Of a stretch of 64,000 bases of DNA, positions 2,094 through 32,393 are shown one piece after another. The notes below the pieces were generated by a model that made no database searches, had not been told where the DNA came from, and saw only the letters and a list, made by a program, of their open reading frames with translations. Both the position numbers and the translations under genes were made by a program. How positions within the stretch are numbered: position 1 is the first letter of the stretch; each line of letters opens with the position of its first letter. This stretch comes from an uncultured Chloroflexia bacterium (lineage in GTDB: Bacteria > Chloroflexota > Limnocylindria > Limnocylindrales > CSP1-4). Location: assembly GCA_963752475.1 (NCBI GenBank), contig CAVVYR010000006.1, positions 32,001 through 96,000 on the forward strand. Direction: 5' to 3'.

Positions 2094-2902
2094 GCACCGG
2101 ACCTGCCGATCGCTACACCCATGGACACCACGATTCGGTGCTGGCGTCCCATCGCACGCGTACGGTGGCCAACTCGGCGGCCTATCTGCTGCCACGCCTG
2201 GGCCCTGGCCAGCGGCTGCTCGATGTCGGCTGCGGTCCAGGCACCATCACCGTCGATCTCGCTGCGCGCGTGGCTCCAGGCGAGGTCGTGGCCCTCGATC
2301 GTGAAGCCGACATGCTGGCCGAGGTCGCGCGGCTGGCCGCCGACAACGGCGCCTTCAACGTGACTCCGACCGTCGGCGACGTCTATGACCTTGGATACCC
2401 TGAGGGCGTCTTCGACGTCGTCCATGCCCACCAGGTCCTGCAACACCTATCCGATCCAGTGGCGGCGCTGCGCGAGATGCGCCGCATCACGCGCCCGGGC
2501 GGGCTCGTGGCAGCACGCGATGCCGACTACGCGGCCATGATCTGGTACCCGCTCGACCCACGCCTCGACCGATGGCTGGAGATCTACCACGCGGTCGCGC
2601 GCGCCAACCGGGCCGAGCCCGATGCCGGTCGCCGGCTCCTCGCCTGGGCACACGCGGCCGGGTTCTCCGACGTCGCCCCCAGTGCCTCGACGTGGGTCTT
2701 CGCCGACGAGGCCAGTCGTCGATGGTGGGGCGAGACCTGGGCCGAACGCACGCTGAGCTCGGACCTCGCCGGGCAGGCACTGGACAGGCGCATCGCCACT
2801 CGTGCGGAGCTCGAGGACGTGGCTGCCGGCTGGCGGTCCTGGCTGGCACACCCGGACGCCTGGTTCAGCGTCCTCCACGGGGAGATCCTGGCGACGCCCT
2901 AG
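2090..2902 (+). CDS. Class I SAM-dependent methyltransferase
   Basis: LLDVGCGPG motif I, FDVVHAHQVLQH, LREMRRITRPGG; ATGA overlap with upstream gene. Confidence 0.9.
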   Translation: MSTGPADRYTHGHHDSVLASHRTRTVANSAAYLLPRLGPGQRLLDVGCGPGTITVDLAARVAPGEVVALDREADMLAEVARLAADNGAFNVTPTVGDVYDLGYPEGVFDVVHAHQVLQHLSDPVAALREMRRITRPGGLVAARDADYAAMIWYPLDPRLDRWLEIYHAVARANRAEPDAGRRLLAWAHAAGFSDVAPSASTWVFADEASRRWWGETWAERTLSSDLAGQALDRRIATRAELEDVAAGWRSWLAHPDAWFSVLHGEILATP

Positions 2903-3720
2903 TTGCTGATCGAGCGGTACTTGCGCACTCCCAGCGGGGCGAACACCGCCAACATCACCACCATCCAGCCCATGGTCACCAGGACCGGGTACTCACCCGG
3001 GATGCCCTGGGCCGGGAACGGGTTGGGGTTGCCCCACAACTCTCGCAGCGACGCGGTCAGCGTGCTCACCGGGTTCCAGGCGGCGACCGGCTGGAGCCAG
3101 TCCGGCAGCGTGCCGATGGGCACGAAGACGTTGGACACGAAGGTCAGCGGCAGGATGACGATGAACGAGACCTGCTGGGCGACCTCGACCGACGGCAGCC
3201 GCAGGCCCAGCCAGACCCCCACCCACGACATGACGAAGGCATAGGCCAGGGCGCCACCGATGCCGAGCAGGAGCCCGATGAGGCCGGTGTTCACGGTCCA
3301 GCCCACGACGAAGCCCGAGATCATCAGCACCATGAGGATGCCGCCGTTGTAGATGACGTCCGAGACGGAGCGCCCGAAGAGCACGGCCGAGCGCGCCATG
3401 GGCAGGGAGCGGAAGCGGTCGATGATGCCCTTGTGCAGGTCCTCGGTCATGCCGATGGCGGTGGTGGCCGAGGCGAACGTCAGCGTCTGCACGAAGATGC
3501 CCGGCATCAGGTACTCGGTGTAGCTGGCGCCGCCGGGCAGGGGGATGGCGCCGCCGAACACGACCGAGAACAGCAGCACGAACATGATCGACTGGAGGAT
3601 GGCGAAGATGGCCAGCTCGGGGATGCGCGGGATGCGCTTGAGGTAGCGCCACGTCAGCATCAGCCCGTCGTCGACCGCACCTCGCAGCCCTCGGTCCGCG
3701 GCTGGTGCGGGGGCGCTCAC
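2899..3720 (-). CDS. ABC-2 type (DrrB-like) exporter permease
   Basis: YLMPGIFVQ, GIIDRFRSLPMARSAVLFGR, LPDWLQPVAAWNPVS; GTG start at 3720 formed at the IS110 junction. Confidence 0.9.
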   Translation of the reverse strand: MSAPAPAADRGLRGAVDDGLMLTWRYLKRIPRIPELAIFAILQSIMFVLLFSVVFGGAIPLPGGASYTEYLMPGIFVQTLTFASATTAIGMTEDLHKGIIDRFRSLPMARSAVLFGRSVSDVIYNGGILMVLMISGFVVGWTVNTGLIGLLLGIGGALAYAFVMSWVGVWLGLRLPSVEVAQQVSFIVILPLTFVSNVFVPIGTLPDWLQPVAAWNPVSTLTASLRELWGNPNPFPAQGIPGEYPVLVTMGWMVVMLAVFAPLGVRKYRSISN

Positions 3721-3738
3721 TGGTGCACCCTCTTCCTG

Positions 3739-3940
3739 TCGGTAGTCGCAGATCGACTGCCGATGCACCCGAGGTGCCGTCGGGTCACTGCCCCGCTCGC
3801 TCGAACCTTCGAGGTCCAGCATGAGTTCCGCAGGACCCGGCGGTCATCCGGGACGCCGTGACCGTCGACAGGGCTGTGCGCCATGGCCATCACCGGCCGG
3901 GAGCGCCGATCAGTGAGCTGACAGGCAGATGCGTCCCGGC
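3739..3940 (+). ncRNA. Putative IS110 bridge RNA
   Basis: 5' hairpin 3739-3763; target arm 3777-3843 containing GCATGAG; donor arm 3848-3939 containing ACAGGGCT and CAGTGAG, matching the element's junction sequences. Confidence 0.75.
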
Positions 3941-3989
3941 ACCGAGATGCGGGTGCCTCCCCACTGGGATCAGCAGCGAGGAGGCTGAC

Positions 3990-5258
3990 ATGCAGTCTGC
4001 CAGTATCACCCCGAGTCGGGGCTCGTCCGACCAGCCCGTCAGCGTCGCCGTCACCGGTGGCGTGGACTGGGCCAGCGCCGATCATGCCGTGGCCGTCGTC
4101 GACGACGATGGCCGCCAGCTCGCCCGCGAGCGCGTCGAGCACACCGCCGCGGGCCTGCGGGCGATGGTGCGGTTCCTGGCCGATCATGGCGTGGCCGAGG
4201 TCGCCATCGAGCGTGGCGACGGCCCGGTGGTCGAGGCCCTGCTCGACGCCGGGCTGACCGTCGTCGTCATCAGCCCCAACCAGCTCAAGGGCCTCCGTTC
4301 GCGCTACGGCTCGGCCGGCAACAAGGACGACCGCTTCGACGCCTTCGTGCTCGCCGACACCCTGCGCACCGACCGGGCCCGGCTTCGCCCGCTGACCCAG
4401 GACACCGAGGCCACGCGGACCCTGCGCGCCACCGTGCGGGCCCGTCGCGACCTGGTCAGGCACCGCGTCGCGGTGTGCAACCAGCTTCGCGCCCACCTGC
4501 AGGCCACCTTCCCCGGCGTGGTCGGCCTGTTCGCAGAGCTGGACTCGCCGATCAGCCTGGCCTTCCTGGCCCGCTTCGACTCCCAGGCACGTGCCGACTG
4601 GCTCTCCCCCGGGCGGCTGGCGGCCTGGCTGGCCAGCGTCGGCTACAGCGGCCGCAAGGACCCCGCCGACCTCCATGCCCGACTGCAGGCCGCACCCCGG
4701 GGCCCGGTCGGACCCGACGGTGCCGCCCGGGCCCATGTCACCCGCGCCCTGCTCAGCGTGCTCGACGGCCTGGTCGAGCAGATCGGGACCCTCGAGGCGC
4801 AGATCACCGAGCAGCTCGCCCTTCACGCCGACGCCCACATCTTCCGGTCCCTGCCCCGCAGCGGCACCGTCCGCGCCGCCCGGCTGCTCGCCGAGATCGG
4901 CGACGTCCGCGCCCGCTTCCCCGACGCCGCCTCCCTGGCCTGCCTGGCCGGCGTCGCGCCCTCGACCAGACAGTCCGGCAAGCACCGAGCCGTCACGTTC
5001 CGCTGGGCGGTCGACAAGGAGCTCCGCGACGCGGTCTGCGACTTCGCCGGCGACTCCCGACGCGCCAACCCCTGGGCCGCGAAGATCTACGACGACGCCA
5101 TCGCCCGGGGCAAGGACCACCCCCACGCGACCCGCATCCTGGCCCGTGCCTGGCTCGGCGTGATCTGGCGCTGCTGGCAGGATGACGCCGCCTACGAACC
5201 CGCCCGACACCACGCCCTCCAGGCCATGCAGGACACCGCCATGGCGGCCCAGGGTTGA
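3990..5258 (+). CDS. IS110 family transposase/recombinase (DEDD RuvC-like + Tnp20)
   Basis: GGVDWAS, VAIE, NKDDRFDA (DEDD) and GVAPSTRQSG (catalytic Ser); GAGGAGG RBS before ATG 3990. Confidence 0.95.
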   Translation: MQSASITPSRGSSDQPVSVAVTGGVDWASADHAVAVVDDDGRQLARERVEHTAAGLRAMVRFLADHGVAEVAIERGDGPVVEALLDAGLTVVVISPNQLKGLRSRYGSAGNKDDRFDAFVLADTLRTDRARLRPLTQDTEATRTLRATVRARRDLVRHRVAVCNQLRAHLQATFPGVVGLFAELDSPISLAFLARFDSQARADWLSPGRLAAWLASVGYSGRKDPADLHARLQAAPRGPVGPDGAARAHVTRALLSVLDGLVEQIGTLEAQITEQLALHADAHIFRSLPRSGTVRAARLLAEIGDVRARFPDAASLACLAGVAPSTRQSGKHRAVTFRWAVDKELRDAVCDFAGDSRRANPWAAKIYDDAIARGKDHPHATRILARAWLGVIWRCWQDDAAYEPARHHALQAMQDTAMAAQG

Positions 5259-5269
5259 CACAGGGCTAC

Positions 5270-6265
<996 letters not shown>

Positions 6266-30440: not shown

Positions 30441-32393
30441 CTAGGCCAGCGGGATGAAGACGGCGACGTCGAGGATGATCAGCGCGAACAGCGCCGTCAG
30501 GTAGGTGATCGAGAACTTGTACATCTTGACCGCACGCGCGTCCGTGCCCTCGCGGGCCATGGCGAAGGCCTGGAACAGGAAGAGCCCGCCCAGCACCAGC
30601 GCGCCACCCAGGAACAGCAGCCCCATCTCGGCGATGGCGAAGAAGATCAGGGTGAGCGCGACCATCAGCACCGAGTAGAGCGCGATCTCCTGCGTCGTCC
30701 GCTTCACGCCGTGTGTCACCGGCAGCATGGGCACGTTGGCGGCCTTGTAGTCGTCCTTGATGCGCAGTGCCAGCGCCCAGAAGTGTGGCGGCGTCCAGTA
30801 GAAGACGATGAGGAAGAGGAACACCGCCGGCAGCGCGATGTTGCCCGTGACCGCGGCCCAGCCGATCATCGGGGGCAACGCCCCGGCCGCTCCGCCGATG
30901 ACGATGTTCTGCGGCGTCGAGCGCTTGAGCAGCAGCGTGTAGACGATGACGTAGAAGGCGATGGCCAGGAGCGCGAGGAAGGCCGCCACGAGGTTGGTCG
31001 TGAAGGCCAGCCAGGTGAACGAAACGACCGTGAGGACGAGTCCGAAGAGGAGTGCGTCCTGCGGCTCGATCGAGTGCGCCGGCAGTGGCCGACGCTGCGT
31101 CCGCACCATGAGCATGTCGATGTCGCGGTCGATGTAGTTGTTGATGGCGTTGGCGGCGCCCGCGGCCACCGAGCCACCGATGAGCGTGGCGATGACGAGC
31201 CACGTGAACTCCGCCGGCGAGATGCCCTCGGTGAAGCGCCAGGCGAGGACCATCGCGGGCACGGTCGTGACCAGCAGCAGCTCGATGATGCGCGGCTTGG
31301 TCAGCGCGATGTAGGCACGCGCCTTGGCGCGGAAGGGTACGGCGTTGGAGACAGGCTCGGCCGGGCTGTCAGATGGCCCGGCAGCGGCCTCGACCTCGTC
31401 CAGGAGCTCGCCGTTCGCTGGAGCGACCTCGCCCACGCGAGCGTCGTACCAGGCGTAGAGCGTGCCTGCAGCCATCAGGCCCCAGATGGCACCACCGAGC
31501 GCGAGGTGTGCGGAGACGGCCCAAGCCGCCAGCGTGGTCCAGATCTGGAAGGCGCCGACCACGACCTGCACGACGTATAGCGCGGCTGCGGTGCCGACGA
31601 GGCTGAAGAGCCGGTTGGCCGACGCCGACCGGGCTTCACCCTCTGACGCGGCGTCTCGGGCCGCACGCCAGGTCACGATCGTGGCCCAGAGCATGATCAG
31701 GCCCACGATGGCAGCCACGATGCGATGCGCGAAGTGGTGCATCTGGAGTAGCGCCGCGTCAGGGTTCTCGTTCCAGGTGGGGATGAGCTGGCCGTCGAAC
31801 AGCGGCCAGTCGGGGAAGACGAGCGAGGCGGCATTCACGGTCACGTTGGAGCCGAACAGCATCAGCACGTAGATCGAGGCCGCGGCGAACGCGACGATGA
31901 GCGTCATGCGCTGGGAGCCGCCACCCATGGGCAGCTCGACCGGGTAGCGCGAGCGGACGAAGACGAAGATGGCCGCGCCCAGCAGGATCATCGAGGTCGC
32001 GAGGTGCGCGGTCACCGACTCGTTGGAGTTCATCGACTCCACGGTCCACCTGCCCAGCAGGGCCTGGAAGCCGGTGAGCAGGATCAGCACGACCGAAGCC
32101 ACGACGATCGAGCGGGTCTGCCGATGGTGCCGCCATGCCTGGACCCCCAGCCAGAGCACGAGGAATCCGATGATGACGCCCCACCAGCGGTGGATCGACT
32201 CGATCCAGTCCGCACGGTCCCAGGCGTTCGGCCCGTCGAGGGCTGGGATGATGGCGCCGCGACAAAGCGGCCAGTCGCCACAACCGAGCCCCGATCCGGT
32301 GCTACGCACGATGACGCCGATGACGACCATCACGTAGACCGCGACGATGGTGGTGAGTGCCAGCTTCTGGAAGCTGGTCAACCTTGGGTTCAT
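30441..32393 (-). CDS. ctaB: Fused heme A synthase (CtaA) and heme O synthase (CtaB)
   Basis: N-terminal GSGLGCGDWPLC, ESIHR, HFAHR; C-terminal LTKPRIIELLL, NNYIDRDID..M.RT..RPL, WTPPHFWAL. Confidence 0.92.
   Translation of the reverse strand: MNPRLTSFQKLALTTIVAVYVMVVIGVIVRSTGSGLGCGDWPLCRGAIIPALDGPNAWDRADWIESIHRWWGVIIGFLVLWLGVQAWRHHRQTRSIVVASVVLILLTGFQALLGRWTVESMNSNESVTAHLATSMILLGAAIFVFVRSRYPVELPMGGGSQRMTLIVAFAAASIYVLMLFGSNVTVNAASLVFPDWPLFDGQLIPTWNENPDAALLQMHHFAHRIVAAIVGLIMLWATIVTWRAARDAASEGEARSASANRLFSLVGTAAALYVVQVVVGAFQIWTTLAAWAVSAHLALGGAIWGLMAAGTLYAWYDARVGEVAPANGELLDEVEAAAGPSDSPAEPVSNAVPFRAKARAYIALTKPRIIELLLVTTVPAMVLAWRFTEGISPAEFTWLVIATLIGGSVAAGAANAINNYIDRDIDMLMVRTQRRPLPAHSIEPQDALLFGLVLTVVSFTWLAFTTNLVAAFLALLAIAFYVIVYTLLLKRSTPQNIVIGGAAGALPPMIGWAAVTGNIALPAVFLFLIVFYWTPPHFWALALRIKDDYKAANVPMLPVTHGVKRTTQEIALYSVLMVALTLIFFAIAEMGLLFLGGALVLGGLFLFQAFAMAREGTDARAVKMYKFSITYLTALFALIILDVAVFIPLA

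Follow-up and report, generated by a model that had tools for sequence, protein, structure and literature searches.

The 64,000-nucleotide stretch of DNA analysed here (hereafter the window; positions 32,001 to 96,000 of contig CAVVYR010000006.1, assembly GCA_963752475.1 of an uncultured Chloroflexia bacterium) carries an IS110-family insertion sequence (IS) of 1553 bp (3720..5272, plus strand, counting one core copy) between the genes coding for an ABC transporter ATPase and an ABC-2 permease. The main feature of this insertion, which was missed in a first-pass annotation of the same sequence, is an open reading frame (ORF) that runs antisense along the entire element and links both host genes, opening at the captured host ATG and ending in a TGA that overlaps the GTG with which the permease gene now starts. 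The arrangement is best explained, with rather more confidence than doubt, as a translatable non-polar insert which would relay ribosomes to the displaced gene, and both host genes are probably kept working by ribosomes that read across the element.

The letters at both junctions agree with the first-pass annotation, which had placed an IS110 element inside the ATGA stop/start overlap of the two genes and had correctly described the ATPase stop codon as retained and the permease as restarting at a GTG whose G is derived from the IS. A CTCA core occurs at each junction (3716-3719 and 5269-5272). At the right junction the minus strand reads GAGGAGGTGCAGGC-ATGAG-TAGCCC, with the spacing SD-N7-ATGAG (SD, Shine-Dalgarno sequence), in which TGA (5272..5270) is the ATPase stop codon and ATG (5273..5271) the former permease start codon. 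At the left junction it reads AGGAAGAGGG-TGCACCA-GTGAGCGCCCCC, where the first base of the IS provides the G of the GTG at 3720..3718. The SD-like run said to be supplied by the IS about 7 nt upstream of this codon is present as a purine run (3737..3728) which stops 7 nt upstream of the rebuilt GTG. The likeness that had been seen between the IS end and the sequence it displaced extends to a generic SD, a spacer and NTGAG and no further, the flanks of the other two copies in the genome sharing nothing more. The element itself is composed of a non-coding left end of 270 nt, the transposase gene and a right end of 14 nt.

The antisense ORF is read in the exact complement of the transposase codons, and can thus be open only where TTA, CTA and TCA codons are avoided in the transposase gene and the element ends are stop-free and in frame. 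The relatives compared comprise 80 of the 456 reported, with transposase identities of 67-93% and many of them from Actinomycetota, as well as others of the same genus; named isolates among those reported belong to Planobispora, Kribbella, Jiangella and Nocardioides, among others. Copies more than about 95% identical were merged into clusters, of which 43 are inserted at start codons (start-type) and seven at other triplets (non-start). The ORF is open, in frame and terminated solely by the core TGA in 48 of the 52 copies found at an ATG or GTG (507-544 codons), but in none of the 12 copies at other triplets, which contain three to six internal stops each and seven of which are out of frame. 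TTA, CTA and TCA codons are absent from the transposase genes of all 43 start-type clusters, while all seven non-start clusters contain three to five. The GC content at third codon positions (GC3) was controlled for in closely related copies: L082, with 45 A-ending codons, lacks all three avoided ones, against four in each of its clade-mates L064 and L104, and L034 has none against three in its sister L042. The codon avoidance is not accounted for by GC3.

The element ends follow the same pattern. In 40 of the 43 start-type clusters the left end is stop-free in frame 0 of the antisense strand, whereas one to four stops are usual in frames 1 and 2. An in-frame element length is kept by 40 of 43 start-type as against three of seven non-start clusters. 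The left ends vary from 237 to 300 nt in multiples of three throughout, with the insertions and deletions (indels) falling in the loops of the bridge RNA described below and in a tandem duplication of the end. The latter is seen in L037, L039, L045, L047 and L057, where about 45 nt at the extreme left end (CTGGTGCACC...) are present in two copies and the length remains divisible by three. Of the 38 distinct left ends of start-type elements, 29 carry an SD-like run placed 7-13 nt upstream of the rebuilt GTG; none of the seven non-start ends does. According to a quick tree the non-start lineages arose at least four times. The design is also repeated in four of the five copies of a subfamily from the same genus with 46-49% identity, the core GTCA and a length of 1472 bp, in which GGAGGG is located 8 nt before the rebuilt GTG. 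Two of the relatives, L047 and L083, occur on metagenome bins called Pseudomonadota (Ramlibacter and an alphaproteobacterium); L047 and the L045 copy, which comes from a Mycobacterium bin, have identical transposases, and these placements are due to mis-binning or recent transfer. A search of plasmid records returned two matches, one on a Rhodococcus plasmid, in which the upstream gene, as annotated, ends exactly at the right-end core and the left half is cut by an IS3 element, and one in a record without annotation.

The start-type relatives are inserted at the starts of genes, and always antisense to the host gene. Among the 36 start-type loci with at least 250 nt of flank on each side, the downstream gene is in frame with the junction codon by GC3 in 22, where one in six is expected by chance, as against none of the 12 non-start loci. 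An in-frame downstream ORF of at least 60 codons is found in 25 of the 36 loci, with a Pfam match in 22 of these 25, and in 21 of the 22 the domain starts within a few residues of the junction, as in a CbiC domain (8-195 on profile 2-195) and a response-regulator receiver domain (5-119 on profile 1-111). Both host ORFs in the window are likewise intact, in keeping with the earlier suggestion that the element inserts without destroying either protein. Four-nucleotide stop/start overlaps with Pfam support, in which the upstream gene ends at the junction TGA, account for 14 of the 36 loci and include pairs coding for ABC ATPase/permease, histidine kinase/response regulator, OtsA/OtsB, Hen1/Pnkp-like, MNT/HepT and CrcB/CrcB proteins. 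The further proposal that translationally coupled junctions are the target must be narrowed: the element does land on start codons in a fixed orientation, but its guides read the start codon and AGC rather than the coupling. One start-type copy, L044, interrupts an LD-carboxypeptidase gene at an ATGAGC that is internal and in frame, and the Pfam match resumes at profile position 58.

The recombinase domains, the predicted two-armed left-end RNA with target and donor guides and the shared core place the element among the bridge-RNA IS110 elements. The ends are strongly conserved among the relatives, the right end reading ...TTGACACAGGGCT(A/T)-CTCA and the left end CTCA-CTGGTGCACC..., and when 25 left ends are folded to a consensus, two arms with internal loops are predicted, with 59 base pairs, 20 of which show compensatory changes. 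No Rfam family was matched over 3300-5700 at E values up to 1. GCATGAG, which had been named as a guide from the window alone, corresponds to the right target guide (RTG) of this RNA: in 44 of 50 distinct element/site pairs its three variable letters pair perfectly with the right flank, and in the other six they match at two of three positions, while shuffled pairings yield 5.4 perfect pairs on average and 12 at most. The left target guide (LTG) matches its flank at 3.63 of 7 positions against 2.99 after shuffling, a value reached in none of 1000 shuffles, and the natural left targets of the start-type elements match it only at positions -1 (98%) and -2 (60%). Given the constrained RTG and the weak left match, effective recognition amounts to approximately NNN-(A/G)TGAG-C(G) on the sense strand of the gene. 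In the repeat-targeting lineages the LTG matches at 5.2 of 7 positions. The 'half-match' of a recent preprint deals with recognition of the donor alone, and the weak left match is not explained by it here. The donor guides match the element's own ends and scarcely vary among the relatives. Some lineages (L086, L087, L091, L092, L095, L105, L064 and L067) are retargeted to a short repeat, GAGG(C/T)GGGCA, which is present in several copies per genome; both of their target guides match well, and the open antisense frame and the SD-like run have been lost. At window position 3821, the RNA-library run X3 contains a diverged relative with an A to C change in the right target guide, which would retarget it away from ATG.

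The guides do not account for the choice of start codons on their own. GCATGAG occurs at 622 sites in the same genome, 68 of which are start-like, and GCATGAGCG at 147 sites, 38 of which are start-like; with only 11-26% of the motifs in start-like positions, guide specificity is insufficient and the purging of harmful insertions must contribute.

In the mechanism proposed here, the bridge RNA picks a start codon followed by AGC, in the form NNN-(A/G)TGAG-C(G) on the gene sense strand, and recombination at the core sets the element antisense to the gene; sequence and covariation show both of these steps. The host SD and ATG would then head an ORF along the whole antisense strand, ending at the TGA of the left core, and ribosomes arriving from the upstream gene, or loaded at the SD, would translate across the insert. 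This translation would keep the operon transcript covered, so that polarity would be avoided, and termination at the TGA beside the IS-borne SD-like run, 7-13 nt before the GTG, would lead to restart at that GTG and to reading of the displaced gene. The ORF product would be a by-product, and the element would act as a natural non-polar cassette. Whereas the anatomy of the element, its guides, the empty site and the pattern among the relatives are shown here, it is inferred that the antisense ORF is translated, that ribosomes restart at the GTG and that the host benefits.

The interruption itself can be followed in related genomes and in the other copies of the element. The empty site which the first-pass annotation had suggested seeking was found in all 11 related genomes with an orthologous ATPase/permease junction, in the form SD-N-ATGA in ten and GTGA in one. 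The closest of these (96% permease identity) reads M-T-A-P at the permease start, where the genome analysed here would read M-S-A-P. One contig from the public DNA run X1, probably the source sample, fuses 3715 to 5269 with 1553 bases skipped, four letters at the joint fitting either side; it lends weak support to the empty site, its short side measuring only 26 letters. An additional right-end junction in the same run, with a loose end behind window position 5276, has an SD-like run followed by ATG on the other strand of its flank, which points to a further site of insertion among the cells sampled. Two intact copies of the element and a 5'-truncated remnant are present in the genome, all three on an ATGA overlap behind an SD, and alignment of their flanks puts the element ends where they had been placed from the window alone. 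At the second copy, the overlapping genes code for a 2-oxoacid dehydrogenase E1 and a lipoyl-domain protein. The remnant (L011, G000:C6:337847-341902) lies at the overlap of two oligopeptide-type ABC ATPase genes; its left part is missing up to the equivalent of window position 4215 and its right end has a 2-nt deletion.

Several observations weigh against a relay of ribosomes through the element. The complement frame is open by chance in 106 of the 543 genes (19.5%) of 380-560 codons in the same genome, which has 68% GC, so that the window alone is not significant and the relatives, themselves not mutually independent, carry the case. Nine of the 38 start-type left ends lack an SD-like run, and 11 of the 36 start-type loci lack an in-frame downstream ORF of at least 60 codons. 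An empty-site allele may coexist in the sample, in which case the insertion seen here may be young and not yet exposed to selection. Contigs resembling parts of the IS occur in the RNA-library runs X3 and X17; they carry neither strand nor level and may represent DNA. Synonymous divergence (dS) of the transposase gene is lower in start-type pairs (0.36-0.55) than in non-start pairs (0.69-0.89), which could mean amino-acid constraint on the antisense frame, and a disordered functional protein would be compatible with the structure prediction given below.

The last two points bear on the alternative that the antisense ORF codes for a functional protein serving the element, as supposed for the 'hed' ORF of IS900, with start codons targeted so that host signals express it and the rebuilding of the start being incidental. 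Conservation of the ORF extends to relatives with as little as 46% transposase identity, 41 antisense products align to that of the window at 48-90% identity, and the IS900 precedent itself, as set out in a 2021 account (PMC8141618), adds to the appeal of this explanation, as does the lower dS in start-type pairs. The latter difference is, however, confounded by GC3 (0.889 in start-type against 0.783 in non-start pairs), and no conclusion can be drawn from the transposase dS. In the left end, chosen since it is free of the transposase coding that would confound the comparison, the ratio of non-synonymous to synonymous divergence (dN/dS) in the ORF frame is 0.96 in 53 same-length pairs, within the 0.79-1.02 of the other five frames. 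A Pfam search of the antisense ORF returned no match, and the AlphaFold2 model of the product, built with a 41-sequence alignment, has a mean predicted local distance difference test (pLDDT) score of 38.6, a predicted template modelling (pTM) score of 0.14 and no secondary structure. The left end has frequently undergone in-frame indels and tandem duplications, and a protein-coding role does not predict the loss of the SD-like run in the non-start lineages. These features fit a frame which is kept open so as to be translated, rather than a selected protein, and an element-serving product appears unlikely.

Somewhat less probable again is that translation or read-through across the insert mainly serves the element, in that host transcription sustained by ribosomes would produce antisense RNA and transcriptional interference and so silence the integrated transposase and bridge RNA. 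The invariably antisense orientation, the conserved TTGACA of the right end and the invariant hairpin over the transposase SD all accord with such silencing, as does the statement, in passages of Durrant et al. 2024 (PMC11208160), that the promoter for bridge RNA and recombinase of IS110-family elements is rebuilt only in the circular form. The stop/start overlap and SD-like run are, though, explained no better by silencing than by ribosomes relayed to the displaced gene, a mechanism with which silencing is compatible rather than exclusive. It is more doubtful still that no adaptation is involved and that the open frame stems from high GC, the bias towards starts from purging, and this copy is a polar insertion that silences the permease gene. 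The chance rate of open complement frames in genes of similar size, the proportion of motif sites that are start-like by themselves and the possible empty-site allele in the same sample could all be cited for this. It would nevertheless leave unexplained the complete split between start-type and non-start clusters in TTA, CTA and TCA codons, which persists in the sister-lineage and GC3 controls, the restriction of left-end indels to multiples of three, the stops in frames 1 and 2 where frame 0 has none, and the covariation of the SD-like run with guide type.

The features of the element and of its host genes are collected in Table 1. The Pfam matches of the transposase have E values of 2e-36 (PF01548) and 1.2e-18 (PF02371), and its TGA stop codon is embedded in the conserved right-end TTGACA (5255-5260), a candidate -35 box whose promoter would be complete only in the circular form; no circle junction was found among the public-run contigs compared with the window. 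The hairpin at 3957-3983, which immediately precedes the transposase ATG (3990), has the look of an attenuator of transposase translation. An in-frame ATG for the permease (3822..3820, minus strand) lies inside the IS, 34 codons upstream and without an SD, and is complementary to a portion of the RTG; automatic gene prediction may take this codon as the permease start (ORF 2899..3822).

Table 1. Coordinates in the window of the IS110-family element, its parts and the adjoining host genes
Feature	Position	Strand	Remarks
ABC-2 permease	2899..3720	-	start now GTG 3720..3718
Left core CTCA	3716..3719	.	minus-strand TGAG; gives the antisense-ORF TGA stop (3719..3717) and the TG of the rebuilt GTG
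Antisense ORF, 518 codons	3717..5273	-	host ATG 5273..5271 to TGA 3719..3717, overlapping GTG (GTGA)
Mobile element, IS110 family	3720..5272	+	flank alignment of genome copies; 1553-base skip in public contig; ends defined without inverted repeats
IS left end on host-gene strand	3720..3737	-	AGGAAGAGGG 3737..3728, spacer TGCACCA 3727..3721, G 3720 completing GTG
Bridge RNA	3765..3956	+	predicted fold: outer stem 3765-3770/3951-3956; target-binding arm 3777-3843; donor-binding arm 3848-3939
Left target guide CCGCTCGCT	3793..3801	+	almost constant in start-type relatives
Right target guide GCATGAG	3819..3825	+	complement of target top-strand CTCATGC; 3' side of first loop
Left donor guide ACAGGGCTG	3868..3876	+	sense of right-end sequence ACAGGGCT (3868-3875)
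Right donor guide CAGTGAG	3911..3917	+	complementary to core and left end, CTCACTG
Hairpin CCTCC / transposase SD GGAGG	3957..3983	+	8/8 pairs identical in 25/25 sequences
Transposase/recombinase, 422 aa	3990..5258	+	Pfam PF01548 and PF02371
Right core CTCA	5269..5272	.	on the minus strand, ATPase TGA stop and TG of captured ATG
ABC transporter ATPase	5270..6265	-	Pfam PF00005 and DrrA C-terminal domain; stop kept

In engineered non-polar cassettes, an open frame is followed by a stop codon beside an SD and start codon, and the downstream gene of the operon is still translated; such cassettes are man-made, whereas the arrangement in the window is carried by a natural mobile element and assembled by site-specific recombination at a start codon. 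Element-long antisense ORFs have a precedent in IS900 and IS901 of Mycobacterium avium, where the 'hed' ORF was reportedly described by Doran and colleagues in 1997 and by Inglis and colleagues in 2003. In IS900, hed is an ORF on the complementary strand over the entire element, without ribosome-binding site or start codon, whose function was listed as unknown in 2021 (PMC8141618), and the insertion point cited for both IS900 and IS901 lies between SD and start codon (PMC2942039). Compared with these descriptions, the present element is alike in belonging to the IS110 family, in inserting in a single orientation at translation initiation signals and in its complementary-strand ORF over the whole element, which also lacks its own ribosome-binding site and start. 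It differs in that the crossover TGAG overlaps the start codon instead of lying between SD and start, the ATG staying on the upstream side, so that the host ATG is captured, the same core gives the stop of the ORF and the host gene acquires a rebuilt GTG. The crossover within the start codon, and a core that supplies both stop and new start, set the present family apart from IS900 as described, as does the comparative evidence. The published reading for IS900 is that insertion serves 'to express hed', while the evidence presented here points to translation as such. A literature search for the arrangement, outside of which lay subscription papers and supplements, returned only mentions of IS900 hed and no description, and start-codon targets and hed are not mentioned in the passages matched by term in two RNA-guide papers of 2024.

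For IS621, a left-end RNA with target- and donor-binding loops is described in the parts of Durrant et al. 2024 drawn upon here (PMC11208160). According to the same passages, IS621 shares with the present element the two recombinase domains, the two-loop left-end RNA and a -35-like box in the right end, as well as 5' guides in the top-strand sense, 3' guides that are complementary and a pairing that includes the core. Its core, however, is a CT dinucleotide where that of the present element is the 4-bp CTCA, and the targets named there for IS621-type elements are repeats, for instance repetitive extragenic palindromic (REP) elements, as opposed to gene starts. The present elements also differ from IS621 in an LTG which scarcely varies and which natural targets match poorly, and in an element length which is kept in frame.

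For annotation, the finding means that software will assign a wrong start to the displaced gene, or will predict a 'hypothetical protein' of 500 codons over the length of such an element. The elements further provide natural bridge RNAs that read start codons by means of a strict 7-nt right guide and a mostly unmatched left guide, which bears on the specificity of bridge recombinases in genome engineering. A testable function is offered for the element-long antisense ORFs of IS110-family elements, IS900 'hed' included. Beyond the window, and with slightly more reserve than belief, it may be proposed that a widespread actinobacterial clade of bridge-RNA IS110 elements evolved translational transparency, in which the whole element is one stop-free antisense frame with an unselected product, and this frame ferries ribosomes from the captured to the rebuilt start; IS900 'hed' would be explained as well, and the near-constant, largely unmatched left guide would mark a generalist seeker of (A/G)TGAGC starts, not of one repeat. 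Such elements would occupy operons without polarity, a way for a mobile element to reside in the interior of an operon at low cost to its host.

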